Shown here: positions 2,804 through 51,809 of the stretch, one piece after another
Layout of the letters: each line of letters begins with the position of its first letter
How positions within the stretch are numbered: position 1 is the first letter of the stretch
DNA from: Candidatus Poribacteria bacterium
GTDB lineage: Bacteria > Poribacteria > WGA-4E > WGA-3G
DNA length: 64,000 nucleotides
Direction of reading: 5' to 3'
Assembly (NCBI GenBank): GCA_965214095.1
Contig: OZ243938.1
Span: 1,184,001 to 1,248,000, forward strand
Translations under genes and position numbers: made by a program
Notes under the pieces: generated by a model
Told to the model about the DNA's origin: nothing
Seen by the model: only the letters and a program-made list of their open reading frames with translations
The model's database searches: none

Positions 2804-4561
2804 TTAATTCTTGTTATCTTTATTTACATCAACAGTTTTGATTTCATATTCTTTTAATTCAAGTGTTTCTTCTTCAAATGAGTTGAACATTTCAATATCT
2901 GCTTCTGTTATATCTTGTTCATTTTCTGCACTCTTAGATAGAGCCTTCAGCAGTATATTTTCACTTTTTTTATGGAATTTAACAATACCAATATGAGGAG
3001 CAATCCATAGCGTCGAAATCGTTTCTCCAGGTGTACCTATGTTCTCTGACTGCCATCTGTCAGAAACATTCATTGTCGTTTCGGTACGAAATTCAACCTT
3101 TAAACAGTCATTAAACTTTCCTGCTGTAGTTTCAATAGATTCTCTACCAACAATTTTACCTGTTTCAATGATAGTAATGTCCCATATATTTCTACTAAGT
3201 GGTCGGTTGATCGGTCTATTTTGTGTGTTCGTACTAAAATATTGTATATCAATCTTTGCTTCAAATTTCGTGACATCCCATTCTTCATTTGTTTGAATAA
3301 TGTCTGGCAAAAATTGTAATGATTCTTCTGACTTGACATCTACTTCATATTTTAATTCAAAACCTCTTTGCTCTTGGGTTGTAGTGTCATTTTTCATCGA
3401 TTCTTGTAATCTGTTTGTAATTCCTTCAATTACATCTAATTCTTTTTTCAGCCGTGCTTTAAGTCCTTTTGCCGCCGAATCACCTACATGCAATACTATT
3501 CCATCATCCGCAACTTCATACAATTCTGGATTCATATAGACATTGTACTCTTCCCAATTTTCTATTGCAGGTTTATAATTGAATGCCTTCAACCGCTTTT
3601 CTGGTATCACTTCATTCTCCAAAGCGCGACGAGTCAATTCATTTCCATCTTGGTCTACATAAACCCAATAACTGCCGGGACTAACAGGAAAGTAGTTGGT
3701 ATTAGCCTCTGTTTCAGTTAACTTGATTTCATATTTCTTGAGTTCAAGGGTGTTTTCAGTTGTTGTGAATGGAATTTCATCAATCGGAGCTGTCTTGAGG
3801 AACATATCTTCCATTTCTCTGTGACACTTTACAATACCAACATTCGGAGCTAACCACAAAGTTGTCACCGTTTCTCCAGGCGGATTACCATCTCTTTCGA
3901 ATGCCATACTCATTTCTGTTTCGGTCCTGAATTCTATTTTTATACATTCTTCAAACGTTCCTGCTGGTGTCTCAACTGTTTCTCTATCTACCACCGTCCC
4001 CGATTCAATCACAGAAAAATTAATGTCCATCCGTTCAATATTATTATCCGAATGGTCATTTACACTTATTTGAAGTGTAGTTTTGAGTTTGCTCGTATCC
4101 CATTCTTCGTTCAATGAAATTGGTAGTGGAAGAAAAAGGTATTGTTCAGAAGAATCAGTGATTACTTCATAACTAATTTCTGCATCGTCGGGAGGCTCCA
4201 TAAGAATAAGTGTCTCAATTTCTCTTGTTAATCGTGCCTTGATAAGCTCTGCTATTTCATTACTATTGTAGAATGTGATACCATCGTCATCTACATAAAA
4301 ACGGTTAGGTTGCAAATGTGGTATATAGTCAAACCATTCTTCTATTGCAGGTTCATAACTGATTGCATGAAAGGTTTGGACAGGTATTACTTCATCTTCA
4401 ACAGATTCTCGGGATATTTCGTTACCATCTTGGTCTTCGTAAACCCAATAACTTCCGACATCACTCGGAAAATATACACTTGAGGATTCATTTCCAAATA
4501 TTGTAATACAAAAACACAGCAATAGTATTGATACGAAAGTCAGACATAGTTTATTCAACAT
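2804..4561 (-). CDS. Secreted acidic protein, array paralog 2, with two tandem copies of the domain
   Basis: Signal peptide; the YFP..GSYWVY.DQDGNE and W.AP..GIVK motifs each occur twice. Confidence 0.85.
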   Translation of the reverse strand: MLNKLCLTFVSILLLCFCITIFGNESSSVYFPSDVGSYWVYEDQDGNEISRESVEDEVIPVQTFHAISYEPAIEEWFDYIPHLQPNRFYVDDDGITFYNSNEIAELIKARLTREIETLILMEPPDDAEISYEVITDSSEQYLFLPLPISLNEEWDTSKLKTTLQISVNDHSDNNIERMDINFSVIESGTVVDRETVETPAGTFEECIKIEFRTETEMSMAFERDGNPPGETVTTLWLAPNVGIVKCHREMEDMFLKTAPIDEIPFTTTENTLELKKYEIKLTETEANTNYFPVSPGSYWVYVDQDGNELTRRALENEVIPEKRLKAFNYKPAIENWEEYNVYMNPELYEVADDGIVLHVGDSAAKGLKARLKKELDVIEGITNRLQESMKNDTTTQEQRGFELKYEVDVKSEESLQFLPDIIQTNEEWDVTKFEAKIDIQYFSTNTQNRPINRPLSRNIWDITIIETGKIVGRESIETTAGKFNDCLKVEFRTETTMNVSDRWQSENIGTPGETISTLWIAPHIGIVKFHKKSENILLKALSKSAENEQDITEADIEMFNSFEEETLELKEYEIKTVDVNKDNKN

Positions 4562-4609
4562 GTTGCATTTCCTTTTTATCTCCCCTCAATTACTGGACTA
4601 ACAAAAACA

Positions 4610-4693
4610 ATAGTAAATTCTAAAATTAACAATACACGCTACATTAAGAAAAAACGCGCTTGTAGTCGCGGAATTCATTACGCCTCTTACATT
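4610..4693. repeat. REP-like element, family E (GTAGTCGCG-GAATTCATT-ACGC); second copy at ~52121-52204
   Basis: ~85-bp similarity between the two intergenic sites, including the flank AAATTAACAATACAC and the tail GCCTCTTACATTA. Confidence 0.75.
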
Positions 4694-5585
4694 ACTCGGT
4701 TACTCCGATTTCCGGTGAGTCTGTTTTTATCTCATAACTTTTCAATTCAAAATTGGTAACTTCATCAGAATTCTCACCGTTGCTCATGTATTTTACAATA
4801 CCAATATTTGGAGCTAACCATAGTGTGGAAACTGATTCTTGTAGCTGCTGAGTCGGTATTAACTGCTTTATTTGTGGTGGAAGAGTCGTATCTGTAGATG
4901 TCAATGTCCTGTATTCAATTTTTAAACAATCATCAAACTTTCCTGCTTCAGTCTCAACTGTTTCTTTCCCTACTACTTTGCCTCTCTCTTCAAAACTGGT
5001 CGTAGATACAATGGATTTAAGTTCTTCTGGAGGATCAACTGCCGCACCATTTATATCCATATACATATTTACCTTTACTTCTAATTCCATGGCAATCCAT
5101 TCTTCATTATAGGTAATCGGTATGGGAAAAAGATAGAAATAATCTTGGGCAGTAGGATCAACTGTGTAGTCAAATTCAATCGTAACATCAGGAGGGAGTT
5201 GTTCGGCGATCAGAAGACGCATAGATGCAATCGTTTCATCAAGTTTCTTGCTGAGGATAGATTTGGTTGTAGTTTCTATATCATCGCCAACATATAATGC
5301 GACCCACTTCTCTCCAATATTATATAGAAATGGATGCATCAGATACTGATATTTTTCCAGATCCTCAATTTCTGGTTGATATGAAAATGCATGATAAGTC
5401 ATACCTTCTATATTCTTATCTTCAACAGCAGATCGGGTTAATTCGTTACCATCTTGATCAACATACACCCAAGTGCTACCAACTGTATTAGGAAAATATA
5501 GTTCTGCCGACTCCTTACCTATTGACGAAACGCTTAGACCGAAAATGAGTAATAGTGTAAATAATGACCGAGAAACTCTAAACAA
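4692..5585 (-). CDS. Secreted acidic protein, array paralog 1 (first gene of the array)
   Basis: TTG start with AGGAGG RBS; signal peptide; same motifs. Confidence 0.85.
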   Translation of the reverse strand: MFRVSRSLFTLLLIFGLSVSSIGKESAELYFPNTVGSTWVYVDQDGNELTRSAVEDKNIEGMTYHAFSYQPEIEDLEKYQYLMHPFLYNIGEKWVALYVGDDIETTTKSILSKKLDETIASMRLLIAEQLPPDVTIEFDYTVDPTAQDYFYLFPIPITYNEEWIAMELEVKVNMYMDINGAAVDPPEELKSIVSTTSFEERGKVVGKETVETEAGKFDDCLKIEYRTLTSTDTTLPPQIKQLIPTQQLQESVSTLWLAPNIGIVKYMSNGENSDEVTNFELKSYEIKTDSPEIGVTE

Positions 5586-5658
5586 TTATTATTCCTCCTG
5601 AAAATTAACATCACCTATTTAGTATACACGAAGATACTGCCTATATCAAGGAAATTAA

Positions 5659-5811
5659 TGGAATGTAAAATCTTTAGCACTAACTTCCTACCATCCATTG
5701 TAGTGTGAGGTCTCTGTGTCCCGTAGTTGTTGATAGATTGAATGATGGTGGGGCACGGAGACCCTGTACGACAATGAGTAATGTGATATTTTGCCAAAAA
5801 CTTTACACATT
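5659..5811. repeat. Degenerate palindromic REPIN/MITE-like element, family C
   Basis: Inverted arms containing GTGGGGCACGGAGAC and GCCAAAAACTTTACACA; similar to 7041-7107. Confidence 0.65.
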
Positions 5812-5835
5812 CAGCATCACGCCACAAAACCAATA

Positions 5836-6597
5836 TCACTCCAAAACCTTCCTACGACTTGGAGAATCAATAAACAACGAATCCCCTCCATCAATCGTCA
5901 ACTCCAACCCTGTCACCCACGCAGCCTCATCCGAACAGAGCCACAACGCGCCATACGCCACATCAATCGGATTACCAAGACGTTCTAACTGAGGCTCAAC
6001 CGGGGCGATTTCTCCATCCGGCAAAGGATCCCAGATGATCCCAGGACATAACGCATGGACACGGATATTTTTATCGTACAGTTCTTTCGCAAGGTTTTTC
6101 GCAGTTGCTACCATCCCCGCCTTCGCAGCAGCATAAGCAACGTTAGCATCCTGACGAACACGCGCACCCGCCGAAATCGTGACAATACAACCGCCACCCC
6201 GTTTCTCCAATATCGGCACAAGTAGACGAACAGGATTGAAGAGCGTCCGCAAATTATTTTGCAACGCGCCATCCCAATACTCTGGATCCATTGTAGTGAT
6301 ATCGTGTTCCGTTGAGAAAAAACCACCTGCTGCATGGATAAAACAGTCAACACCACCATATTCCGAAACTACAGCATCAATAAGGGTGTCTACTTGATCA
6401 GAATCAGTCAAATCACTCTGATACATATACACATCACCACCGTTATCACGGATACGTCCTGCGGTTTCTTCCATCTTTTCTGTCGTGCGTGCAGCAAGGG
6501 CAATCTTGGCACCTTCTTGTGCAAATAGCAGTGCCGTTGCCCGACTCATATTTGAACCGGCACCACCGATCAATACAACCTTATCTTTCAATCGCAT
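5836..6597 (-). CDS. Short-chain dehydrogenase/reductase (SDR)
   Basis: N-terminal Rossmann segment, YAAAK catalytic motif, C-terminal TG..L.IDGG. Confidence 0.9.
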   Translation of the reverse strand: MRLKDKVVLIGGAGSNMSRATALLFAQEGAKIALAARTTEKMEETAGRIRDNGGDVYMYQSDLTDSDQVDTLIDAVVSEYGGVDCFIHAAGGFFSTEHDITTMDPEYWDGALQNNLRTLFNPVRLLVPILEKRGGGCIVTISAGARVRQDANVAYAAAKAGMVATAKNLAKELYDKNIRVHALCPGIIWDPLPDGEIAPVEPQLERLGNPIDVAYGALWLCSDEAAWVTGLELTIDGGDSLFIDSPSRRKVLE

Positions 6598-12048: not shown

Positions 12049-14706
12049 TCATGGAGAAGTAAGTAATGACAAACTTCGTTCTAATTTTTCTTGTTCAATC
12101 AACAACCTATCCAAGAGATCACGTTTTTGGACAACGACATTTTCAGGAGCACGTTCAATAAAGTTCGGGTTTTCTAAGGTCTTCTGTGCTGCCGTAACAT
12201 CTTTTGTTGTCTGTTGATGTCGTTTTGTCAAACGTGTTTTTTCTGCCTCCAGATCAATCACTCCTTCCAAAGGTATATAGATTGCCATTTCTCCTATGAC
12301 TGCCTCTGCAGATGCAGGAGGTTTCGGTAAAGATTCCGCAATTGTAATGGATTCCACACGAGTAAATGCAGGTAAGTAGTGTTCAAGATAGGTTTCAAGC
12401 CGTTCACGAATTTCAGCATTTGGTGATTGTATGTGAACTTCCACAGCAGCACCTATCGGCACATTCAGTTCACCACGAATGCTTCTGATATTATCTATAA
12501 CCTTCATAAGCGCATCCATCGTGGCTTCTACTGATGGGTTTTGAGCTGAAGGTTGAGGCCAAGGTGCAACGGTAACAGATCCATTTTCATCAGGAAAATC
12601 TCCCCGACTGCTAAGAGGGAGTTGCTGCCATATTTCTTCTGTGAGAAATGGCATCAATGGGTGGAGTAGACGTATAATCTGTTCTAAGACATCAGCAGCA
12701 ACCCATAATGCCTGAGGCTCATCGTTTGATAGTCGCTGTTTAGCAAATTCCAAATACCAATCACAGAATTCATGCCACAGAAATGCATAAAGTGTTTGTG
12801 CAACTTCATGAAAACGGAAATTCTCCAATGCCTCTGTCGTTGTTCTGATTGTATAATTTAGTCTGCTTTGTATCCATAAGACTTCTAACGGAAGTTGATC
12901 ATCGTCATCAACACCATCTGCAGGCATCGGATGTTTTTCCAAATTCATCAGCAGGAACCTTGCTGCGTTCCATATTTTATTCGCGAACCTTCTTCCTGAT
13001 TCAATCTGGGATTCTGGTAATGCAACATAAGGGATAGGTGTGCTAGCATTTGTAAGAGCAAACCGAAAAGCATCCGTACCATATTTCTCTATAGTCTCTA
13101 TAGGATCAATGCTGTTTCCCTTAGATTTACTCATCTTCTGTCCCTTCTCATCAGCAACAAGTCCGTGAAGGTAGACAGTCCTGAATGGCACTTCATCCAT
13201 ACATCCGAGTCCTAACATGATCATCCGTGCAACCCAAAAGAACAGAATATCCCATCCGCTAACAAGTACTGATGTGGGATAAAAGGTCTTCAACTCTTCG
13301 GTTTCTTCTGGCCACCCCATAGTTGAGAAGGGCCATAATCCTGAACTGAACCAAGTGTCTAACACATCTTCGTCCTGATGAAAATCCGTTGAACCACATT
13401 TGCACTTTTCAGGTGTATCCATTACAGCAGTAACTTCTTCACATGAATTGCAATACCAAATCGGCAGTCTATGTCCCCACCATCTTTGTCGTGAAATCGG
13501 CCACGGTTCGATATTTTCCATCCAGTGATAAAACCGTGAAGTTTCACGTTCAGGAATAAATGTGATGTCACCTTTTTTAGTCGCTTCTATCGCACGATCA
13601 GCAAGTGGACGTACATTCATAAACCATTGTAATGATATGGCAGGTTCAATAATAGTGTTGCACCGATCATGGTGTCCAACTGCATGCCGATGTGGAACTA
13701 TTTTGACGAGATAATCCTCTTTCTTCAAATCCTCAATGACCTGTTTCCGACAATCCCAGCGAGATAAACCGGTGTATCTCTCCCCTGCATCTTCATTCAT
13801 GTGTCCATCAGTGGTGAAGATGTTCAGTTGTTCAAGATCGTGTCTCAGTCCGATTTCATAGTCATTAACATCGTGGGCAGGAGTAACTTTCAACGCACCA
13901 GTACCAAATTCAGTATCAACATATTCATCCGCTATAATTGGAATCTCTCTATCGCAGAGAGGCAGGAGAACCTTTTTACCGATCAAATGTTTGTATCGTT
14001 CATCATCAGGGTGGACTGCGACTGCGGTATCACCTAACATCGTTTCAGGACGAGTCGTCGCAATTTCAAGAACAATTTCTGTGTCTATTACAGGATAGTG
14101 AATGTGGTAAAAGTTGCCGTCAATCTCAACCGGTTCTACCTCAAGATTACTTACTGCAGTATGACATTGTGGACACCAATTCACCATATATGTGTCCCGA
14201 TAGATGAGTCCTTGGTTGAAGAGTTTTACAAATGCAGTGCGAACTGCTTTAGATAAACCTTCATCAAGCGTAAACCTTTCACGTTCCCAATCACAGGAAC
14301 AACCGAGTTGCTGTAGTTGTGATACGATATAACCAGCAGATTCCTCTTTCCATTGCCACATCCGTTCAATAAATTTCTCACGTCCGATTTCGTTTCGACT
14401 CGAACCTTCCTCTGCCAACTTTCGCTCCATGATGAGTTCAGTGACAATCCCCGCATGATCGGTTCCTGGCATCCATAATGTGTTTAGTCCTTGCATACGT
14501 TGCCAACGGATAAGACAATCTTGAAGTGTGTTATCAAGCGCATGTCCAATATGCAAACTACCAGTAATGTTAGGCGGAGGAATGACAATGGCGTAGGAAG
14601 GTTTGTCGGAGGTAGCTTCGGCGTGAAAAAAGTTATTACTTTGCCAATATTTGTACCACTTACCCTCAATGGAATGAGGGTCGTAAATCTTTGGGAGACT
14701 CGTCAT
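12049..14706 (-). CDS. valS: Valine--tRNA ligase
   Basis: PPPNITGSLHIGH, TTRPET, GTGALKVTPAHD, SRQRWWGHR, DTWFSS, KMSKS, C-terminal coiled coil. Confidence 0.97.
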   Translation of the reverse strand: MTSLPKIYDPHSIEGKWYKYWQSNNFFHAEATSDKPSYAIVIPPPNITGSLHIGHALDNTLQDCLIRWQRMQGLNTLWMPGTDHAGIVTELIMERKLAEEGSSRNEIGREKFIERMWQWKEESAGYIVSQLQQLGCSCDWERERFTLDEGLSKAVRTAFVKLFNQGLIYRDTYMVNWCPQCHTAVSNLEVEPVEIDGNFYHIHYPVIDTEIVLEIATTRPETMLGDTAVAVHPDDERYKHLIGKKVLLPLCDREIPIIADEYVDTEFGTGALKVTPAHDVNDYEIGLRHDLEQLNIFTTDGHMNEDAGERYTGLSRWDCRKQVIEDLKKEDYLVKIVPHRHAVGHHDRCNTIIEPAISLQWFMNVRPLADRAIEATKKGDITFIPERETSRFYHWMENIEPWPISRQRWWGHRLPIWYCNSCEEVTAVMDTPEKCKCGSTDFHQDEDVLDTWFSSGLWPFSTMGWPEETEELKTFYPTSVLVSGWDILFFWVARMIMLGLGCMDEVPFRTVYLHGLVADEKGQKMSKSKGNSIDPIETIEKYGTDAFRFALTNASTPIPYVALPESQIESGRRFANKIWNAARFLLMNLEKHPMPADGVDDDDQLPLEVLWIQSRLNYTIRTTTEALENFRFHEVAQTLYAFLWHEFCDWYLEFAKQRLSNDEPQALWVAADVLEQIIRLLHPLMPFLTEEIWQQLPLSSRGDFPDENGSVTVAPWPQPSAQNPSVEATMDALMKVIDNIRSIRGELNVPIGAAVEVHIQSPNAEIRERLETYLEHYLPAFTRVESITIAESLPKPPASAEAVIGEMAIYIPLEGVIDLEAEKTRLTKRHQQTTKDVTAAQKTLENPNFIERAPENVVVQKRDLLDRLLIEQEKLERSLSLLTSP

Positions 14707-42113: not shown

Positions 42114-42782
42114 CTATTCTAATGTCCGTAATTTTTCGATCACAACATCCGGATGTTCACTTCGAAAAATCGCTGTTCCAGCAACAAGAATAGTCGCGCC
42201 ATGCTGTGCTGCAACCGGGCCTATCTCAGGTGTCACACCTCCATCAACTGAAATGTCAGGTGGAACATCCATATCCTTAATCTCTTGATGTATCCGTTCA
42301 ATCTTCTCTAATGTTTTTGGTATGAATGATTGTCCACCGAATCCCGGTTCAACACTCATCGGTAACACCAAGTCAATATCTGATAGAAAAGGAAAAACTT
42401 CTTCACAACTTGTCCTCGGTGAAAAGGCGATACCTACCTTTAAGTTATGTGCTTTGATTACTGATATTATAGCATAAGGTTCATCCTCACTTTCAATATG
42501 AAATGTGATCATATCAGAACCTGCATCTACTAATGCGTCAATATATCTTAATGGATGTGTGACCATAATATGAACATCAAACGGCACATCAGTTTTTGAG
42601 CGAACTGCCCCAATCATCAATGGACTTATTCCAAAGTTCGGCACAAATTCCCCATCCATCACATCAAAATGGAGTAGGTCCGCTCCCGCAGCAACGACGC
42701 GTTCTACTTCTTCGCCAATACGACTGAAGTCTGCTGCTAATAATGAGGGGGCGATTTTGGGTGTAACTTTATTATGTTTCAT
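42114..42782 (-). CDS. rpe: Ribulose-phosphate 3-epimerase
   Basis: IAPSLLAADF, HFDVMDG.FVPN, MSVEPGFGGQ, VDGG, VAGTAIF. Confidence 0.96.
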   Translation of the reverse strand: MKHNKVTPKIAPSLLAADFSRIGEEVERVVAAGADLLHFDVMDGEFVPNFGISPLMIGAVRSKTDVPFDVHIMVTHPLRYIDALVDAGSDMITFHIESEDEPYAIISVIKAHNLKVGIAFSPRTSCEEVFPFLSDIDLVLPMSVEPGFGGQSFIPKTLEKIERIHQEIKDMDVPPDISVDGGVTPEIGPVAAQHGATILVAGTAIFRSEHPDVVIEKLRTLE

Positions 42783-42836
42783 TTGATTCTACTAATGCCT
42801 TCAGGTAAATAGACATAATCAGAAAGTGAATTTGGT

Positions 42837-43802
42837 TTATTGATATTGACGTTCATAGATTTTCTTGCCATCTTCAAACACAATTACAAACGTTGAACCA
42901 AAAACTCTGATTCTATTTTGTTCCAAATCAATCACTGTTCCAGGGGCATAAGGTGCTTCTAATACCGTCCTTTCTTGATATTCATCCGCTACAATGATTT
43001 TTACATCGCGCGCCTTGTTACCCTCTTGGCTGACGGTGTGCTTATGGGTTAACCATCTCCCTCTGTTTTCAGTAATGTCACGTTTACCGCTGACCTCAAG
43101 CGTTATTAAGTCACCTATTTGCACCAGTTGTTTGTGTCCAATTATACGTCCTTCTTCAATAATAGGATGGGGACTATATTTTGTTTCAACGTTGAGTCCT
43201 ATTGCTTCAAGTGCCGGTAAAACATCGTTGACAAGTTCGTTCTTTAAACTTGGTAGTTTAATAACTTCAGGTTTTCTACCCAAACTAACCAATAAATCTA
43301 CTGGGTGACCACGTTCTTTTGCTGTGCCTTCTGAAGGATTCTGAGCGATTACTGTATTGGTCAAATATCTTGTTGAATGAACACGAGCAATTGAATTGGG
43401 ACGAAAACCTGCCGATTGCAATGTTTCATAAGCTGCATCCTCCGATTTACCAATCACCGAAGGAATTGGCGTTAATACAGCACCAATACTTACCGTTATT
43501 TTGACAGGATGGTGTGGCTTTATACTGGAATTGGCTGGTGGGTCTTGCTCTATAACCTTCCCTTTGGGTTCGCTACTACTCGCTTGTATAATCGGTTTTT
43601 CAATTGTTAACCCGACTTCAGAAAGTGCAGGTGCAGCTTGATAGTAATGTTTACCGATTATATTTGGAACCAGTACTTCAGTTGACTTAACCCATTGAGG
43701 AATAACAATGAATACTGTTAACAATCCGACAATACCCATTACGATCATACAATAGATAGCAATTTTGACCATTGCCCATAATATAGAATTCAGCTTGTTC
43801 AT
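42837..43802 (-). CDS. Membrane-anchored PASTA-domain protein
   Basis: N-terminal TM; three PASTA-like repeats (VPNIIG...VIEQDP...V.ITVS.G). Confidence 0.88.
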   Translation of the reverse strand: MNKLNSILWAMVKIAIYCMIVMGIVGLLTVFIVIPQWVKSTEVLVPNIIGKHYYQAAPALSEVGLTIEKPIIQASSSEPKGKVIEQDPPANSSIKPHHPVKITVSIGAVLTPIPSVIGKSEDAAYETLQSAGFRPNSIARVHSTRYLTNTVIAQNPSEGTAKERGHPVDLLVSLGRKPEVIKLPSLKNELVNDVLPALEAIGLNVETKYSPHPIIEEGRIIGHKQLVQIGDLITLEVSGKRDITENRGRWLTHKHTVSQEGNKARDVKIIVADEYQERTVLEAPYAPGTVIDLEQNRIRVFGSTFVIVFEDGKKIYERQYQ

Positions 43803-43822
43803 CCCATAGCAAGTTCCTGTTT

Positions 43823-44790
43823 CTATTTATCAGTGGTTGATTCTGAGCTTATAAAACATTCACCGGTTTTGAGTTGGTATCCATTTACAAAATCTTTTGC
43901 CGACATAACCTTTTTCGTTGCAGGTTGAACTTGTAGCAGTTGGATTTCTCCTTCTCCAGTCCTAACAAATAAATTTTGTTCTGCATCTATCCTGATTGTA
44001 CCGGGTTGTTCATTCAATTGAGTTTCTTCCGTATTTTCTAATTGAACTTGAATGACCTTGATCAATGTATTTTCAGAAAAAAAAGTGTATGCTCCTGGCC
44101 ATCCTGATGTGCCTCTAATTAGATTATGGATTTTGGTTGAAGATTCAGACCAATTTATACATCCTATCTCTTTAGAAAGTCGTGGTGCATGTGTTGCCTC
44201 TGTGTGATGCTGAGGTGTTGAAGGTGGTGGCTCTCCTGGTTGTAAGTTAGCTAAGACATCTATCAATAACTTCGCACCAATGTCTGCTAATTTCTGATGT
44301 AACGTTAAGGCTGTATCCTCAGGTTCAATCGGTATTCGCTCCATACAGATAATGTCACCGGTATCTTCACCAACATCTAAAAGCATTAGCGTTACACCGT
44401 CTCTTTCTCCCCATTAATTAATGCCCATTGTATCGGGGCAGCCCCTCTGTACTTTGGTAATAGTGATGGGTGTAGGTTAATAACACCGCAAGGCGGGATA
44501 TCTAATACTGATTGTGGCAATAACTGACCAAAAGCAGTAACGACCATGACATCTGGATCAAGTCGTCTCAGATATTCTACAAACTCTTTTTTTCTAACTT
44601 TTTCAGGTTGATACACCTGCAAGTCATGGTTTAATGCGATCTCCTTCACTGGTGAAGGCTTTAATTTTTTCCCTCTACCACTTGGACGATCTGGTTGTGT
44701 AACTACTCCAAGAATTTCATGATTTTCTGCAATTAAAGCGGACAATGCAGGATTTGCAAATTCGCTTGTTCCCATAAACAGAACACGCAT
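43823..44790 (-). pseudogene. fmt: Methionyl-tRNA formyltransferase with a 1-nt frameshift near 44397 (real lesion or sequencing error)
   Basis: 5' part MGTSEFA, VTQPDRP.GRG, NLHPSLLPKYRGAAPIQ; 3' part D.GEDTG, IHNLIRG...WPGA; adding one G restores GEKETGVTLMLLD. Confidence 0.88.
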
Positions 44791-44844
44791 ATTATAGATA
44801 CTACCTTAATATTTCTAAAAGAATATGATCGGCATTACCTGCGA

Positions 44845-45408
44845 TTAAAATCGAATCTCAAGTAGAGGTATGGCTATACCAATTGGCGGATCATTTGTCC
44901 ACATATTCAGTTGGTTTGTTGTCATAGTTTCATGCGGATGGTCAAAATAGGTTGAGATACCATAAAAGTTAACATGTGGACCTAAACTTGGTATACCAGC
45001 AAGCGTTCCTTCGGGTGGAACCTCCTCCTCAGTCGGAGGGGTTGGAGGTTTACGACCTGGAACACTCGGTGCTGACCTATCAACATTTCGGGTATGTAAC
45101 CAATCCCATATTCCTATAAAAAGTGATAACGAAACCGCACTAATACCCATCACACGATAATTCTGTGGAGTCAATATAGGTGCAATTTTGTTTGTCTGTA
45201 TCATCTTTACACCACGAACCCCCAAATAACTATGCACTGCAGTGAATGGAAGAGAACTTAAAGTAACTATTTCAAAACGACGAAGAGCACTTTCACTATA
45301 TTCTTCATGTTGTGTTTCTTGTTCTTGTGCCTGTGCTTGTAAATGTGGAATAATACCAAGAAAACAGACTATAGAGATCGCAAAAATTCTAATGTAATAT
45401 TTGAACAT
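44845..45408 (-). CDS. Hypothetical exported/membrane protein
   Basis: Signal peptide, RRFEIV.L.SLPFT segment, one further hydrophobic helix, C-terminal Phe. Confidence 0.7.
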   Translation of the reverse strand: MFKYYIRIFAISIVCFLGIIPHLQAQAQEQETQHEEYSESALRRFEIVTLSSLPFTAVHSYLGVRGVKMIQTNKIAPILTPQNYRVMGISAVSLSLFIGIWDWLHTRNVDRSAPSVPGRKPPTPPTEEEVPPEGTLAGIPSLGPHVNFYGISTYFDHPHETMTTNQLNMWTNDPPIGIAIPLLEIRF

Positions 45409-45473
45409 AGTGTACCCCTATTTTCTTACAGATATTGTGTGTTTTGGTAATGAATGTCTTTTAGTTCTAACTT

Positions 45474-45962
45474 TCAGTTTGTGGTTTGTTGAACACGAAA
45501 GAGATAAACGATGAGCATGCCAGCACCGATACATACAGATATATCAGCAACATTAAATGTAGGCCAATAAAGCCTTTTGCTTTCAATACCAAACTGAAGA
45601 AAATCAACAACTTCACCCAGATAGATTCTGTCAATAAAGTTTCCTACTGCACCACCAAGAAGAAACCCTAATGAGACCTGCATCCATCGACTGTGTTTGA
45701 ATCTAAACGAATAAACAACTATGAAAATTAAGGCAGCTATTGTAATTATGACCAATAGGGTACGTTGGTCAGATAATATACCGAATGCCGCTCCTGAATT
45801 TCTATCATGTCGTAAGGTAAAAAAACCTTCAATTATTGTGATACCACTCCCTTTAGGAATGTGGTCCTGAACCAGACGTTTGGTGATGATGTCAAGCACT
45901 AATGACGGAATTGCTACGATGATTAATGGAAATATATTCTTAAAATATTGAATTGGTGACAT
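45474..45962 (-). CDS. lspA: Lipoprotein signal peptidase II
   Basis: NSGAAFG, GGAVGNFIDR, VVDF, PTFNVAD. Confidence 0.96.
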   Translation of the reverse strand: MSPIQYFKNIFPLIIVAIPSLVLDIITKRLVQDHIPKGSGITIIEGFFTLRHDRNSGAAFGILSDQRTLLVIITIAALIFIVVYSFRFKHSRWMQVSLGFLLGGAVGNFIDRIYLGEVVDFLQFGIESKRLYWPTFNVADISVCIGAGMLIVYLFRVQQTTN

Positions 45963-45986
45963 AACTACCTGAATATCTTATCACTA

Positions 45987-48557
45987 TTAGGTTTTTGATT
46001 TATCAGATTGTTTCAGTGATTTCCACTCATCATTTGTATTCATTTCGTCATCTATGTGTGGTAAGTGGTACCACTTTTCTTCAAAAATACTCTTCTTAGT
46101 TGAGAACACTTCTGTGTAAAACTCTTCAGCTAAGTAAGGGAGAATGGGAGCAATCCGTTGAAGAAGTATTTTGAAGATAGAAGTTAGTGCAGTATTAGCA
46201 GAATCTGATTTATCAGTTTTACATAAACTGAGATAAAAGGCTAATTCTGACTGGCAAAATTCAAACAGCAATACCCACATCTTGTAAAAATCATACTTCT
46301 CATATACATCTTGAAGGTGTGTTTGAAATTGATGTGTTATCAATATAACAAGTTTATCTTGTTTCTGAAGTTTGTCATAGTCCTTCACATTACTTTCACT
46401 TAGTAATGATGGCTGTTTTTTCTTTTTAGTTTTCTTAAAGTCGGATATTATCTCAGCAACCTGACAAAACGTCTCCTTTAGACTTTCATAGTTTTGATAG
46501 TATTTTTCTATCAAGGTTTCAAGTTGTTCGGTTTCCGCGCTTTCCTGAGGAACTTGATGTACATCAGGAGTAATTGAGAATAACCTGATAATGTCTGCTG
46601 GATATTTTTCCAAGATATCGTCATGAATCTCAGTTTCCCATACTACTTCGTCAATTTCATTTAATTCCAAGTGCTTAAATGGATGACTCTCTTTTGAAGG
46701 TCTACTGAGTTGAAGCGACACAGCTAACACGCTCAATTCACCTAACCATTTTACAAATGGTGTTCTTGGTACAAATGCAACATTGGTGGGTGCCTCAAGG
46801 GCAGATTTCTTAAAATCTGATATGTCAAGTGTTTGGAGTAAATTCGCAAAGTAACTCTCTATATTAGTTGACTCTTTCCGAAAATCCTTAGAATGACAGT
46901 TCATACAAGCCGCATCTGTAGGTAATAACTCTTCAACGCTAAGTCGGAACCAATGTTCTGAACCACGCCTAATTGAACTACGAACTGTACGAAGTATTTT
47001 CTTATCAATTATAAGTTGATTGCAGTTATCGCATCTTAACACAGGTAGCGGAATGCCCCACTGTCTCTGCGATGATATTTTCATATCAGATACACTCATC
47101 ATTTGGTTTTTTATGTCATCGCGAATTGCCTCATCATAATGTTCCCAATACTCAGGAGATGTCGTAATTTCATCAGATGTACCTACTGAGGATGTGCTAA
47201 AGGTCCAATGCCGGAAAGGACGTAAGACCGATGTACCGTTGCAGTGTTGACATTCAAGATGTTCAATCTTCCGTTTTCGGGTATTAATCAAGCAATCACG
47301 ACTTTCCAACTCATCTGTAATAAACTGAATCGCATTTTTTAAGTATAAACCACAAAGCATATCAGCATCTTCCGTAAAACGACCAGTTTCATCAAATATA
47401 GGTGTTGTTGTTGATGATAAAAACTTGGAATTAATGGTGTTACGAAGATGAGGTAACGCACTAAATATGTTGTGGCTAAGTGTGTGATGTGCTGGATTAA
47501 GTGGAATAATTCCATCCATCAATTCTTTTTTCTCTGAAGGATCCGACACATTTTGTAAAATCTTTTCTGGTATGGTAAAAAAGGGAAGGTCGGTGAGCGA
47601 AAATAGTGGGTGTGAAAGCGTGCAATTATTCAGATGTTTTGTATTAAATTTCGTGAGAACTTTGGGAACACTCTTATCTTCGGTGTTTGGATTAGTGAAT
47701 TGTTTCAATTGTGGTTCAGCAAAGATCAGATATTGATCATCAAATTCAGTCAAGCAAAAGTGAGTCTTTTCAAATATGCCAATACCGATAGTGCCAGCGA
47801 TCTCCCACAATTGATTCAATGGAAATCGCACGGCAAAATATATATCTTTTCCAAGCTCTTCAAAACCAATGTTGAATGGAAATTTGACAAAAGTGTATAA
47901 GGTATTTCTGGATACTGGTGTAACAGTCTTACCTGGTTCCAATGGAGTAACACAATTAGGACACCAATGGCTGAGTTTCAGTTCATCTTGAAGATAATTT
48001 GAGTCTCTTAGTCTATCAAAGAAACTGAAGAGTTTTGTATCGTAACGTGCCTCTAAAGTCTTATCGGCTGAACTCCAATCTGCAAATACACCGAGAGCTG
48101 CTAACTTTTGCTGTTGTGATTTCAGACATTCACTATATAATTGCCGGCACTGTTTTCTGAAATTAATAATATTTCCCGACGTTTTTGCATTATTCTCTCT
48201 TATCACACTCGCTTCAATGCTAAATGGAAACGTTTCCCACAGTGGTGAATATGCAACGGAGTGTCCATGCATCATTTCATACTTTAGGAATATATCTTGA
48301 TATATCTTTCTCCGTAACGTGTCTGCATTCAGTCTATGAACCGGTGTCGGCATTTCACGTATTACATAAGTTGGCAATTCAGTCGTTTTTTCATCAACTT
48401 TATACACCTTGCGTTTGTTCCACAGATTGAGGATATCAGTTTCAAGTGATTTGTGTTTCACCTTGTCTGTGGGAACAGAAACAATGTCTTTTTGTGTTGA
48501 TTTACGACCAGACCGTGATGTAGTAGATTTTTTTGTCGAAGGATTTTTCTCTTTCAT
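45987..48557 (-). CDS. Degenerate isoleucyl-tRNA synthetase-like protein lacking HIGH/KMSKS (putative pseudo-enzyme)
   Basis: Collinear with IleRS1 (LGVFADW, WCPNCVTPLE, FVKFP, ISSQRQWGIPLP, WF.LS.EELLP...C..C...FRKE, KYPADIIRL, IAPILPYLAEE) but catalytic motifs replaced; directly upstream of lspA. Confidence 0.85.
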   Translation of the reverse strand: MKEKNPSTKKSTTSRSGRKSTQKDIVSVPTDKVKHKSLETDILNLWNKRKVYKVDEKTTELPTYVIREMPTPVHRLNADTLRRKIYQDIFLKYEMMHGHSVAYSPLWETFPFSIEASVIRENNAKTSGNIINFRKQCRQLYSECLKSQQQKLAALGVFADWSSADKTLEARYDTKLFSFFDRLRDSNYLQDELKLSHWCPNCVTPLEPGKTVTPVSRNTLYTFVKFPFNIGFEELGKDIYFAVRFPLNQLWEIAGTIGIGIFEKTHFCLTEFDDQYLIFAEPQLKQFTNPNTEDKSVPKVLTKFNTKHLNNCTLSHPLFSLTDLPFFTIPEKILQNVSDPSEKKELMDGIIPLNPAHHTLSHNIFSALPHLRNTINSKFLSSTTTPIFDETGRFTEDADMLCGLYLKNAIQFITDELESRDCLINTRKRKIEHLECQHCNGTSVLRPFRHWTFSTSSVGTSDEITTSPEYWEHYDEAIRDDIKNQMMSVSDMKISSQRQWGIPLPVLRCDNCNQLIIDKKILRTVRSSIRRGSEHWFRLSVEELLPTDAACMNCHSKDFRKESTNIESYFANLLQTLDISDFKKSALEAPTNVAFVPRTPFVKWLGELSVLAVSLQLSRPSKESHPFKHLELNEIDEVVWETEIHDDILEKYPADIIRLFSITPDVHQVPQESAETEQLETLIEKYYQNYESLKETFCQVAEIISDFKKTKKKKQPSLLSESNVKDYDKLQKQDKLVILITHQFQTHLQDVYEKYDFYKMWVLLFEFCQSELAFYLSLCKTDKSDSANTALTSIFKILLQRIAPILPYLAEEFYTEVFSTKKSIFEEKWYHLPHIDDEMNTNDEWKSLKQSDKSKT

Positions 48558-48640
48558 ATAAATTCTGTCACTTTTAATTCTATAGTGTCAATGCCACTCT
48601 ATTTCAATTCACCTTTGTATTCTATGTAACGTTCTAAAAA

Positions 48641-48907
48641 CTACATAATCAACAATTGCTGTAGAAAGTACAATAAAAATAATAACACCATCGGTGAAAA
48701 ATCTATACCGATATTTCTACTCACTGGTTGCATTGCGTTTCGCAGCGGCTGCAGAATAGGATCAACAAGTTGACCCGTGAACGAATAGACTCGTTGTAAA
48801 GTGTCATTTCGTGTGCTTAATACAATCCATGAGAGTATTACGTTTATGAATACGATAAATATGTAAACTTTAAGCACACGACTAAGAACGTAGATAAGAA
48901 TTGTCAT
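48641..48907 (-). CDS. yggT: YggT-family membrane protein
   Basis: ILSW, LVDP.L.PLR, GIDFSP; follows proC; start placed at MTILIY. Confidence 0.88.
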   Translation of the reverse strand: MTILIYVLSRVLKVYIFIVFINVILSWIVLSTRNDTLQRVYSFTGQLVDPILQPLRNAMQPVSRNIGIDFSPMVLLFLLYFLQQLLIM

Positions 48908-48914
48908 TACCAGT

Positions 48915-49742
48915 TTATCCTCTTCTATTTGTCGTACCAAGTTGTTCTGCTCGATCTGTAGCGGCAATTATTGCTTCTGCAAGCGTTGCACGGAATCCAC
49001 CTTTCTCAAGTTCATGCAGTCCGGCTGCTGTTGTTCCTCCAGGTGTCGTAACCCGATTTTTTAATGTAGCTGGATGTTCTTTGGTTTCTGCTAACATCTT
49101 AGCTGCTCCTAATACCGTATGGGTCGCAAGAATCTGTGCATCCTGTCGTGGTAACCCTACATGAACGCCTGCATCCGCTAACGCTTCAATGAATAGGGCA
49201 ACGTAAGCTGGACCGCTACCACTAACGCCTGTTACCGCATTCAGGTGTCGTTCATCCATAACTAATGTCGTTCCACATGTATTAAAGACCTTTTCTGTAA
49301 TACGGAGATGCTTATCTTCTGCTGCAGTACCAGGTGTCAAGACTGAAATAGCAGCTTGGACAGAAGCTGCTATATTTGGCATTACCCGGATAATCGGTGG
49401 AAGGGTATCAAAGAATGATTCAAGTGATTCTGTTGTGACTCCCGCTGCAATGCTTATTAACAATTGCGATGATGAAAGAGTTGAGGCAACTTGAGGAAGA
49501 ATGTGAGGTATCGCTACCGGTGGTACCGCACAGACAATAACATCTATCTTTGGTATAAGTTTGTCTATACTTGCTGCGTCGTTAATACCCGTTTCTTCAC
49601 ATAGGTGTTTTACAAGTTTCTGGTCCAAATCGGTTACCCAAATCTGTTCTGCTGGTAACAGATTGTCAACAACACTTCGGACGATGATGCCTCCCATTTT
49701 TCCAACGCCGATAAACCCTATTTTTATGTTCTCATCCACCAT
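48915..49742 (-). CDS. proC: Pyrroline-5-carboxylate reductase
   Basis: GFIGVGKMG, SIAAG, RVMPN, SGSGPAYV, VTTPGGTT. Confidence 0.95.
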   Translation of the reverse strand: MVDENIKIGFIGVGKMGGIIVRSVVDNLLPAEQIWVTDLDQKLVKHLCEETGINDAASIDKLIPKIDVIVCAVPPVAIPHILPQVASTLSSSQLLISIAAGVTTESLESFFDTLPPIIRVMPNIAASVQAAISVLTPGTAAEDKHLRITEKVFNTCGTTLVMDERHLNAVTGVSGSGPAYVALFIEALADAGVHVGLPRQDAQILATHTVLGAAKMLAETKEHPATLKNRVTTPGGTTAAGLHELEKGGFRATLAEAIIAATDRAEQLGTTNRRG

Positions 49743-49768
49743 TAAACTCCTAACTGGAATATGAAAAG

Positions 49769-49794
49769 TACCTACCTACCTACCTACCTACCTA
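49769..49794. repeat. Tetranucleotide microsatellite (TACC)6
   Basis: Directly visible between yggS and proC. Confidence 0.9.
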
Positions 49795-49799
49795 TCTCG

Positions 49800-50519
49800 T
49801 TATTCAAAAATAGCTCGTCCAATTCTGACAATATTTGCCCCTTCTTCAATTGCAATTTCAAAATCGTTCGTCATTCCCATTGACAAGTATTGCATTGATA
49901 CACCTGGGAATTCCTGAGCCTGTATCTTTTCAGCTATAGTTCGTAATAAGGCAAATGCAGGACGGTTCTCCTCAGGAGAATCACCCAACATTCCCATAGT
50001 CATCAGACCTTTGATATTTGCTCCAGAATATGTCAATGATTCTTCAATAAATTGAGGCACATCAGCAGCATCCAACCCGAATTTACTTACTTCTTCGGTC
50101 GTGTTTATCTGTATCAAAACGTCAACTTGTTGATCATTCATTTCTGCGCGTCGGGATATCTCCTCTAACAAGCGCAAACTATCCACAGAATGAATCATAT
50201 CAAACATATCTAATGCGGACTTAACTTTATTCCTCTGAAGATGACCAATAAGGTGCCATTCACAAGCAGAATCGGATGATGTGTAAGTGTTTGTTCTATT
50301 TATTGTCCGATTTATATTATTAAATTTTTGTTGTGTTTCCTGCACTCGGTTTTCACCGATAACGGTATGTCCAGTTTCAAGGACTTTATTTATTTCCTCT
50401 ACTGTACGCCCCTTTGTTACAACAACCAACTTTATGTCTTGCGGCGTGCGATCACTACGCACTGCAGCGAAGACAATTCTTTCCTTTACTTTCGTAAGGT
50501 TATCAGCAATTATGTTCAA
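49800..50519 (-). CDS. yggS: PLP homeostasis protein
   Basis: VVVTK, GENRVQE, WHLIGHLQRNK, HSVDS, GLMTM, LSMGMTNDFE.AIEEGA..VRIG. Confidence 0.95.
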   Translation of the reverse strand: MNIIADNLTKVKERIVFAAVRSDRTPQDIKLVVVTKGRTVEEINKVLETGHTVIGENRVQETQQKFNNINRTINRTNTYTSSDSACEWHLIGHLQRNKVKSALDMFDMIHSVDSLRLLEEISRRAEMNDQQVDVLIQINTTEEVSKFGLDAADVPQFIEESLTYSGANIKGLMTMGMLGDSPEENRPAFALLRTIAEKIQAQEFPGVSMQYLSMGMTNDFEIAIEEGANIVRIGRAIFE

Positions 50520-50767
50520 TTGCTAGCTCCTCACACTCAAAAGATTATTCTTCCTGTGAATCTTCAGGATGATTCTTGTTTCTACCAAATATCCCTTCAA
50601 AAATCTGTATCACTTCTTTGTCGTCAATCAGTCTTCCCATTGAGGCAAACAATATACCTAAACTTACAAAACCGATTCCTACAACAACTGAATGTGTAGC
50701 TTCGGAATAAACTTGAGTTACTCTCACTGCGGTAGTTGTTTCCTTTGACAATTCCTTTGTATATTTT

Positions 50768-51809
50768 AGACATTATAATGAATTAAATAGTAGGAGTTTC
50801 ATAACACCAGGGTCTGAAGTTTAGTCGAAAATTGTGTAAACCACAACAGGTTTCCATAACTAAGTCACAAAACCCTTTCTTCCAATTTCTGAGTTTGTCT
50901 TTGACAATGCGGTATCTTTTGACACCACTAATGGCATGTTCAACACGTATGCGTATAGACGCTATCTTTCTATTGATTTCTTTTTCTTTTTCTGTCAGTT
51001 CTCCACCTTTCGGTTTTTTCTTCGGTTGAACGATGTGAACATCAGGAAGAGTGAACCCCTGAAAACCGGTATCTTGATACAAGGTGCTTCCCGGGGGCAC
51101 ACAATAGCCCACCTGATCAGCTATGTATTTGTCATGGTGTCTTCCTTCAAAAGAGGGTGTCAATAGGACGACTTTGCAGCTCTCATTGATAATCAGATTA
51201 TTTTTTGCTGTATGACATTTCTTTTTACCGCTATAATATGCCTTTTGAGCTTCTGGGTCTCTTGGACGCCGTATTCGCCGTTCTATACCATCATGAAAAA
51301 AAATACGCTTTATCTTGACTTTGACTTGATACCTCACAAGTATCACACATAGATGTGGGAACTGTTTCCCGAGATGGCAGCTCTTCAAGTTCTGCTAATG
51401 CGGTGTTCAATATCGGTAAAAGCAAGTGAATCCATTTATTCGCAAGAGGTTGAGCCATACCAAAGAGCGTGCCGAATAGAACCTGTTTCGGAGCTTCATG
51501 AAGATAAATTAATATAAATAGCAACATATCTTCATGTGAAGCAAAACAACTATTCTTGTAGGGTTTATATCTCCGTTTTATGCGCGGTTTTCCATCAAGG
51601 GTATGTGTTTCCATATAAGCTAAAAAACATTTAGAAAAATGAGGTAATAGTTTTGTAAACTCTTCTAAAGTATATCCAGTGAGAGATAGAAGCGTATCAG
51701 CTTTGTCCTTAATATCTTCAAAAACGATAATGAGAAAACCTCCATTTATAAGATTGTAATTAGAATAACAGAGGTTAACTAAACTTGCAACTAAATCATT
51801 ATAATGTCT
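50768..51809 (-). mobile_element. IS5-family-like element, 1042 bp, copy 2
   Basis: Same TIRs and internal sequence as copy 1; TSD TTT. Confidence 0.92.
50783..51731 (-). CDS. Frameshifted transposase, copy 2
   Basis: Same translated ORFs and same T8 frameshift site as copy 1. Confidence 0.85.

Follow-up and report, generated by a model that had tools for sequence, protein, structure and literature searches.

Proteins that descend from aminoacyl-tRNA synthetases and do not charge tRNA are already a known kind, represented by HisZ and LeuRS-I. Here we describe psi-ileS, a pseudo-synthetase gene derived from type-1 isoleucyl-tRNA synthetase (IleRS1), in a 64,000-nucleotide stretch of a Candidatus Poribacteria bacterium genome (contig OZ243938.1, positions 1,184,001 to 1,248,000; the whole stretch is referred to as the window). 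Judged from its sequence, psi-ileS is very probably dead as a synthetase, displaced by a type-2 enzyme (IleRS2), and kept by selection. A nearly full-length IleRS1 without any synthetic site appears to be previously undescribed. We found no published description of an IleRS1-derived pseudo-synthetase of Poribacteria in a search that left outside the supplements of IleRS surveys, which might list such sequences.

The closest described systems are the canonical IleRS1 enzymes (8C9E, S. aureus 1QU2, and E. coli IleS), with which psi-ileS shares lineage, fold, and the site before lspA, the gene of lipoprotein signal peptidase II. Different from them, psi-ileS has no HIGH, KMSKS, GWDxHG, or EGxDQxRGWF motif, no threonine-rich (T-rich) and aspartate editing residues, and neither the second anticodon-recognition domain (ARD2) nor the zinc-binding domain (ZBD). 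The available part of one survey reports HXGH in all 158 IleRS1 analysed and no natural IleRS1 with a non-canonical signature (PMC10485003). LeuRS-I of Sulfolobaceae and LeuRS2 of Halobacteria resemble psi-ileS in being full-length class Ia copies beside a working enzyme that charge tRNA poorly or not at all. The accessible text gives both a disrupted editing domain, an altered C-terminus, and an unknown role, and states that LeuRS-I still forms leucyl-adenylate and binds tRNA-Leu (PMC9437257). In contrast, psi-ileS apparently lacks the adenylate site, and it is a displaced ancestral gene rather than an extra duplicate. HisZ is likewise synthetase-derived and, in the accessible portions of the reports, acts as a non-catalytic partner without aminoacylation (PMC5388404, PMC10795190, PMC9734150). 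However, it is a truncated class II protein with a known partner, HisG, and a ligand, whereas the psi-ileS product is class Ia and nearly full length. SbzA is IleRS-derived and has a job outside translation, transferring Ile from Ile-tRNA onto altemicidin. As far as the available text goes, it keeps HIGH and KMSKS, weakly charges tRNA, and belongs to an antibiotic gene cluster (PMC6331615). psi-ileS has neither motif, its neighbours are yggS, proC, yggT, lspA, and fmt, and it does not fall into the SbzA type. Bacillaceae such as Priestia megaterium carry, like Poribacteria, both IleRS types in one genome, with IleRS2 being mupirocin-resistant; the accessible text has both Bacilli enzymes active and IleRS1 kept for fast translation (10.1101/2022.02.09.479832, PMC13752280). 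As the Poribacteria IleRS1 partner seems catalytically dead, that explanation cannot apply to it. In the available parts of the literature, the known IleRS duplicates listed are IleRS2 and SbzA (PMC9437257), and the co-occurrence of both IleRS types in one genome is rare and involves two active enzymes (PMC10485003, PMC13752280). What places psi-ileS among the pseudo-synthetases is the loss of catalytic motifs beside a working IleRS2 (not detected in two of the 40 genus drafts), together with purifying selection.

The gene and the parts of its product are as follows.
45987..48557, minus strand: psi-ileS, coding sequence of the IleRS1-derived pseudo-synthetase, 856 amino acids (aa), ATG start; from the open reading frame (ORF), Pfam, NCBIfam, AlphaFold2 (AF2) model, Foldseek, and tree.
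48453..48557, minus strand: N-terminal Lys/Arg/Ser/Thr-rich tail (residues 1-35), disordered in the model (1-30); from model and composition.
48321..48359, minus strand: remains of the HIGH region, reading REMPTPVHRLNAD (residues 67-79); opposite DGPPYANGSIHIGH in the E. coli IleRS alignment, and also aligned to 8c9e.
48213..48242, minus strand: former GWDxHGLPIE, now LWETFPFSIE (residues 106-115); aligned to IleRS1 (GWDTHGLP).
47238..47972, minus strand: CP1/editing domain (approximately residues 196-440) with the first zinc knuckle C199/C202/C436/C439 and degenerate T-rich and HxAPxHGxDD motifs; from the motif table and invariant Cys.
46896..47033, minus strand: second zinc knuckle CDNC...CMNC (C509, C512, C551, C554), flanking WFRLSVEELLP; from invariant Cys.
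46629..46658, minus strand: site at which the KMSKS loop has been lost (residues 634-643, EIDEVVWETE); aligned to RKMSKSLGN of 8c9e.
45990..46577, minus strand: helical anticodon-recognition domain ARD1 (residues 661-856), without ARD2 or ZBD; from Pfam Anticodon_1 and C-terminal comparison.

The 856-codon frame has no internal stop. An earlier note, made from the letters alone, had called it an uninterrupted IleRS1-collinear frame, and both the ORF call and the HMMER alignment to 8c9e agree. Pfam finds tRNA-synt_1 (3.2e-25) and Anticodon_1 (1.2e-13), and TIGR00392, the model of functional IleRS, gives 177.8 bits, below its cut-off of 621.4. According to HMMER, the nearest solved relatives are IleRS1, namely 8c9e from P. 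megaterium (E 6.5e-34) and 1ffy (2.1e-25), with weaker matches to IleRS2 entries of the PDB (about 1e-16). Fold prediction, one of the checks proposed in the note, was run on a 77-sequence alignment and gave a confident AF2 model with a mean predicted local distance difference test score (pLDDT) of 83.6 and a predicted template modelling score (pTM) of 0.83; pLDDT falls below 50 only at residues 1-30, 380-383, and 712-723. When the model was compared with the PDB by Foldseek, IleRS1 structures came first (8c9f, 8c9e, 8wng, and 1qu2; E 3e-34 to 4e-31; 17-18% identity over about 855 aligned columns), followed by IleRS2, ValRS, and LeuRS. Hence, as modelled, the psi-ileS product is a folded, nearly full-length IleRS body. 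Its architecture is that of IleRS1, a Rossmann fold split by the CP1/editing and CP2 inserts and followed by ARD1. ESM Atlas features for the protein comprised generic class I synthetase clusters only. The stretch 45987-48557 is identical in contigs from four public runs, which belong to a single study, represent no more than two samples, and may themselves have supplied the assembly.

All motifs of the synthetic site are replaced. The HIGH position (HxGH, at the start of helix alpha1) reads VHRLNAD in the alignments to 8c9e and E. coli IleRS, and the EGSDQYRGWF position reads VPRTPFVKWL (residues 596-605) in the 8c9e alignment. Of the adenylate and amino-acid pocket motifs GWDxHG and EGxDQxRGWF, Trp residues alone are left. 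KYPADIIRL stands at residues 651-659. In IleRS editing, the WTTTPWT and HxAPxHGxDD residues are catalytic, and one Asp of the latter anchors the substrate amino group. The T-rich WTTTPWT position of the psi-ileS protein reads RFPLNQLWEI (residues 244-253, aligned as NQLWEIAGT), and the HxAPxHGxDD position reads MDGIIPLNPAHHTLS (residues 347-361, aligned as IPLNPAHHTLS), with the Asp pair gone. Every string that the note had quoted for the loss of HIGH, GWDCHGLPIE, EGSDQ, KMSKS, and the editing motifs is present and lies on the motif position.

The elements that it had listed as kept were all located in the ORF as well: four CxxC motifs (CPNC 199, CQHC 436, CDNC 509, and CMNC 551), SSQRQWGIPLP (residues 495-505), and WFRLSVEELLP (residues 536-546). 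All eight cysteines of the CxxC motifs, which make up two zinc knuckles, are invariant in the 77-sequence alignment, where further invariant residues include W46, P70, D88, W107, and E115. A CxxC...CxxC equivalent to the second knuckle is also found in the genome's IleRS2. The C-terminal zinc finger is indeed missing: the protein stops where ARD2 of E. coli IleS begins, and thus has no type-1 C-terminus (ARD2 plus a treble-clef ZBD). The noted Lys/Arg/Ser-rich N-terminal extension corresponds to 35 residues with a net charge of +7 and an isoelectric point of 10.5, of which residues 1-30 are disordered in the model. Comparable basic tails occur in genera g9, g10, g11, and g13 of Poribacteria family f1, and not in families f3, f4, f5, and f8-f10.

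The second ileS with intact motifs, which the note had suggested looking for, exists. The genome containing the window (5.25 Mb, 4 contigs, 94.5% complete) has a single IleRS above the TIGR00392 cut-off, with 966.6 bits and a model match at C1:3563969-3566479.
C1:3563357-3566497, outside the window: IleRS2-type ileS, 1047 aa; from TIGR00392 score and intact motifs.
Its motifs are PPGVHHVLAR (GVHH), GWDTHGLPVE, WTTTPWTLPSN, GSGLVHIAPAFGQDD with the editing Asp pair, and KMSKS. IleRS2 was detected in 38 of the 40 genomes of the genus, and all five deep-branching Poribacteria genomes that were checked have an IleRS2-type gene above the cut-off. By its motifs, IleRS2 presumably charges tRNA-Ile in Poribacteria. 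The tRNA set of the genome is ordinary, with 46 genes including one Ile-GAU and three CAU, and it includes no additional tRNA as a conceivable dedicated client of psi-ileS. As a side observation, GVHH takes the place of HxGH in this working IleRS2; a GxHH swap in IleRS2 is tied to mupirocin hyper-resistance in the available text of PMC10485003. Another frame of the window, of 896 aa at approximately 12445-14706 on the minus strand, gave three weak pieces of ileS-model match and is most likely the genome's valine--tRNA ligase.

The note had also suggested selection on psi-ileS, which the orthologues bear out, as they are intact and have low ratios of nonsynonymous to synonymous substitution (dN/dS, omega). 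Compared with the window gene by the Nei-Gojobori method, psi-ileS has dN/dS of 0.136, 0.175, and 0.176 in the three genomes with unsaturated dS, and the same three pairs give 0.047, 0.045, and 0.059 for IleRS2. In the two readable pairs, dN/dS is 0.128 and 0.092 for lspA, and 0.230 and 0.259 for yggT. The median omega is 0.164 over the 110 of 300 genus pairs that have dS below 2. By part of the protein, with 12 non-overlapping pairs pooled, omega is 0.58 in the tail, 0.16 in the first Rossmann half, 0.18 in CP1/editing, and 0.13 in the second Rossmann half plus CP2. The best-conserved blocks are residues 61-120, 151-200, 226-240, 391-405, and 496-585. psi-ileS is therefore maintained by purifying selection across most Poribacteria lineages.

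At E <= 1e-15, psi-ileS matches were found in 156 of 176 Poribacteria genomes, distributed over the families as f1 111/111, f3 25/29, f4 6/7, f5 3/3, f8 7/8, f9 1/1, and f10 2/2. At this threshold there was no match in f2 (0/11), f6 (0/1), f7 (0/1), and f11 (0/1). All 24 other sampled genomes of the genus have an orthologue, 48-82% identical to the psi-ileS protein; across the genus, protein identity is 48-88% for psi-ileS versus 84-96% for IleRS2. Of the orthologous frames recovered in full, 25 are from genus loci and 6 from loci outside the genus's family, and all 31 are open, with lengths of 734-886 aa. Some rows of the phylum search list stop codons within the match: the frames of G021 and G005 were checked and are open, while G096, G097, G099, and G101 were judged by the length of their open frames, 791-804 aa, which equals that of intact relatives. 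The G038 copy, which has no clean ORF where the ends of a circular contig are joined, was left out of all counts. In deep lineages, the IleRS1-like copies score below the TIGR00392 cut-off (445.5 bits in G056, 301.2 in G066, and 223.5 in G069), and that of G057 is a partial match of 244.5 bits at model positions 315-860. The partial ileS-model match in G058, from f11, has no BLASTP match to the psi-ileS protein.

In the motif table, which covers seven families, none of the 21 Poribacteria rows that span the HIGH site has HxGH, none of the 22 rows has KMSKS, and all five synthetic-site motif groups are replaced in every lineage. As HIGH and KMSKS are absent in each examined lineage, the inactivation is older than the sampled phylum. 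The replacement motifs REMP and WET[FY]P are conserved inside families. The editing site left more varied remnants: GTPWTISAN in f10, GTGLFLAVPGHNQDD in one f8 genus, PGH..(D/R)D in f3, and none in f1. The C-terminus shortens stepwise, from ARD2 with a CxxC...CxxC zinc domain in f10, through an ARD2-like stretch without the zinc domain in f8, to neither in f1 and f3. The IleRS1-type zinc-binding end of f10, the deepest lineage, ties the psi-ileS family to IleRS1. We then built a tree of 56 rows with IQ-TREE (LG+G4, short search, Shimodaira-Hasegawa-like approximate likelihood ratio test, SH-aLRT, as the only support, and IleRS2 as outgroup), in which the row Ile1_Plancto_G180 (wrong frame, 1430 aa, end branch 4.01) was disregarded. 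Within IleRS1, all 17 Poribacteria copies group together as a single clade (SH-aLRT 100). In it, f10 branches off first, followed by f9/f5/f8 and then by f4, f3, and f1; the genomes' kinship labels agree with this order, as expected from vertical descent.

The locus retains the ileS-lspA pair, as the note had stated, with the following neighbours.
45474-45962, minus strand: lspA (lipoprotein signal peptidase II), directly downstream of psi-ileS; from PF01252, 2.5e-40.
48641-48967, minus strand: yggT, upstream of psi-ileS; from Pfam YGGT.
48915-49742, minus strand: proC, upstream of psi-ileS; from Pfam P5CR_dimer.
49800-50519, minus strand: yggS, upstream of psi-ileS; from Pfam Ala_racemase_N.
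The downstream order is lspA, a 187-aa protein without Pfam match, fmt, and a PASTA-domain protein. lspA lies directly 3' of psi-ileS in 9 of 9 loci from seven families. The gene before psi-ileS is yggT in four of the nine loci and DivIVA in two, and a third DivIVA locus, L095, has a phosphorylase gene between DivIVA and psi-ileS. yggS and/or proC are further upstream in 8 of 9 loci, the order of the upstream genes in the window being shared by the f3, f4, f5, f8, and f9 loci. Several junctions overlap by 1-4 bases; E. coli also has ileS-lspA, with the same overlap. Loci in which psi-ileS has start/stop overlaps with its neighbours include L076, L035, and L073 (psi-ileS 2944-5604, lspA 5600-6127). 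In two f2 genomes and one genome of f3 genus g3, the order yggS-proC-yggT-lspA-187aa-fmt-PASTA is kept without psi-ileS, and tblastn at E <= 1e-3 found no psi-ileS remnant at these f2 and g3 loci. The conserved gene order indicates that psi-ileS is the ancestral ileS and was cleanly deleted at least twice. An Rfam scan of the window gave no family at gathering score, which argues against a T-box or other leader. Promoter-like sites in 42500-51000 numbered 23 versus 28.4 expected, with no minus-strand terminator-like site in that region, and a 10-of-12 promoter match at 48591-48562, just upstream of psi-ileS, is not above chance.

From these observations, the psi-ileS product probably does something other than tRNA charging. 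In the reading we prefer, psi-ileS is the vertically inherited ancestral IleRS1, still at its original site before lspA, and a eukaryote/archaea-like IleRS2 encoded elsewhere presumably took over the charging of tRNA-Ile. The ATP- and isoleucine-binding motifs were lost before the sampled phylum diversified, and the zinc-binding C-terminus and editing-site residues later. What purifying selection maintains in most lineages is a folded body with two structural zinc knuckles, and this body would now serve in non-catalytic binding: tRNA, either tRNA-Ile or tRNAs generally, or another RNA may be gripped via the Rossmann/CP1/ARD1 body, and in family f1 the newly gained basic, disordered N-terminal tail may assist. 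The statement as a whole, a dead, displaced, and selected IleRS1 that is now a non-catalytic binding module, has in our estimate a little less than an even chance of being right, and the RNA-binding mechanism by itself is a tentative proposal that is somewhat more apt to fail than to hold. The tRNA-embracing architecture is wholly retained, family f1 has gained the tail of net charge +7, and the protein as a whole is far less acidic than the genome's IleRS2 (net charge -9 compared with -67), which we count as weak support for RNA binding. Basic disordered appendages raise tRNA affinity in eukaryotic synthetases.

Several findings weigh against this reading. The anticodon-binding helical bundle, which the earlier note had stressed, is retained according to its Anticodon_1 match (1.2e-13), but of the folded domains it is under the weakest constraint (omega 0.34), and such a relaxed ARD1 speaks against specific recognition of tRNA-Ile. 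The protein has also lost the C-terminus that reads the wobble base, and its body lacks basic character. Outside the tail it stays net acidic, f3 copies are strongly acidic with net charges of -43 to -52, and among psi-ileS lineages, which range from -52 to +6, no consistent basic character was found. dN of psi-ileS is about five times that of IleRS2, and the 17 Poribacteria copies lie a median path of 2.84 from the IleRS1 root, versus 1.05 for 24 canonical IleRS1, which makes the path about 2.7 times as long. The clean losses in family f2 (0/11 genomes) and genus g3 (0/4 genomes) imply that psi-ileS is dispensable there. Finally, two draft genomes of the genus that carry psi-ileS, G004 (99% complete by markers, 120 contigs) and G013 (81% complete), have neither an IleRS above the cut-off nor an IleRS2 fragment. 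We read these absences as assembly gaps; if they were real, the psi-ileS product would have to charge tRNA in these genomes, and this is the one observation able to overturn the conclusion that it is dead.

The rival that survives best, unlikely though we consider it, is that the psi-ileS product binds a protein instead of RNA, acting like HisZ as a scaffold or regulator that docks onto or allosterically influences its partner, which might be LspA, YggT, or DivIVA from the cell-envelope/division neighbourhood, or the active IleRS2. Constraint is highest in the Rossmann/CP body and not in the anticodon domain, and the psi-ileS-lspA order is invariant in the nine loci, with start/stop overlaps at several of them. 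However, the ileS-lspA linkage is ancestral for working ileS, as the E. coli pair illustrates, and synteny is therefore uninformative on binding; moreover, lspA and yggT persist unchanged where psi-ileS has been deleted.

As a second rival, psi-ileS may be a functionless relic: the ORF would persist only through its transcription and translation within an operon feeding lspA, and selection against misfolding would keep dN/dS below 1. The much faster evolution than that of IleRS2, the stepwise losses of ZBD, ARD2, and then editing residues, and the two deletions without visible change to the remaining locus would all suit such a relic. Nevertheless, we regard it as improbable, because open frames are retained in 156 of 176 genomes across saturated synonymous divergence, the folded domains have omega of 0.13-0.18 with 8 of 8 zinc ligands invariant, REMP and WET[FY]P are conserved as replacement motifs and a tail has been gained in f1, and the gene has stayed in most lineages although the clean deletions show it to be mechanically easy to lose.

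Least of all do we expect the product to be still an enzyme, be it a cryptic-motif synthetase, a trans-editing deacylase, or an SbzA-like aminoacyl-tRNA-dependent transferase: its fold is complete, portions of the editing site survive in deep lineages (GTPWT..SAN in f10, PGHNQDD in f8), and two genus drafts have no detectable IleRS2, but each lineage has replacements in all five synthetic-site motif groups, the window's protein has lost the T-rich motif as well as the aligned HxAPxHGxDD Asp pair, SbzA keeps HIGH/KMSKS in a biosynthetic cluster according to the accessible text (PMC6331615) while psi-ileS sits in a housekeeping locus, and an HxGH to GxHH swap alone abolishes IleRS1 activity in the available part of PMC10485003.

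Degenerate IleRS1 is not confined to Poribacteria. A family profile searched against 1.84 billion representatives gave 17030 matches at E <= 1e-3, of which the best 150 were taken. Among these, 145 were at least 690 aa long and were aligned, and 85 of the 145 failed a strict test for HxGH or K[MILFV]S[KR]S. Many of the 85 are plausible active variants (HxGT, AMSKS), and the top twenty or so are the Poribacteria family. Clearly degenerate are P0142, from a Bacillota metagenome-assembled genome (MAG), and P0154 and P0191, from Armatimonadota MAGs; further degenerate IleRS1 representatives are on metagenome contigs. The P0191 copy (genome G176, L110:4001-6844) scores 497.2 bits, below the cut-off, lacks HxGH/KMSKS, and lies about 650 bp upstream of lspA. 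The same Armatimonadota MAG has an IleRS2-type gene elsewhere (L115), with 917.7 bits, KMSKS, and WTTTPWT, and four genomes of P0191 relatives have one canonical IleRS1 only. In the 56-row tree, the ten degenerate rows from outside Poribacteria need at least three separate origins. Degeneration of IleRS1 beside IleRS2 thus recurs.

What sets psi-ileS apart is that a displaced ancestral gene, not an extra copy, has been kept under selection across a whole phylum. The graded losses of domains between its lineages show in what sequence a class Ia synthetase gives up its functions. psi-ileS would be a natural separation-of-function allele, in which the remaining role, be it tRNA holding, regulation, or a link to lspA and division, is free of essential charging and thereby open to direct study. 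A bolder proposal is that IleRS1 has a second, aminoacylation-independent function tied to its site before lspA, at the end of the division/envelope cluster, and that Poribacteria kept only that function. We consider it doubtful, at roughly the same low probability as the relic. If true, it would explain the long-unexplained ileS-lspA linkage and perhaps the retention of IleRS1 beside IleRS2; degenerate copies of the Armatimonadota type would be further cases, and the dead IleRS1 would isolate that function. The family also calls for caution in annotation, as close homologues from Candidatus Poribacteria bacterium carry the labels 'class I tRNA ligase family protein', 'hypothetical protein', and 'isoleucyl-tRNA synthetase'.

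Some features of the surrounding genes were observed in addition. The 187-aa protein without Pfam match is encoded at 44845-45408 on the minus strand, between lspA and fmt. In three loci from other families, identity to this protein is 64-67% over residues 37-112 in two and 51% over residues 37-120 in the remaining one, and it is kept with or without psi-ileS. The methionyl-tRNA formyltransferase gene fmt (43823-44790, minus strand) is split by a one-base shift near 44386-44396 into ORFs of 132 and 187 aa. The contigs of all four public runs have one extra base behind 44396, restoring the frame, which makes an assembly error the most likely cause of the split, rather than a broken gene; in relatives, fmt is a single gene of 321 aa (L084:7152-8114). 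Just upstream of yggS, at 50783-51614 on the minus strand, adjacent ORFs of 201 aa (DDE_Tnp_4, 3.2e-30) and 107 aa resemble a two-piece insertion sequence transposase.

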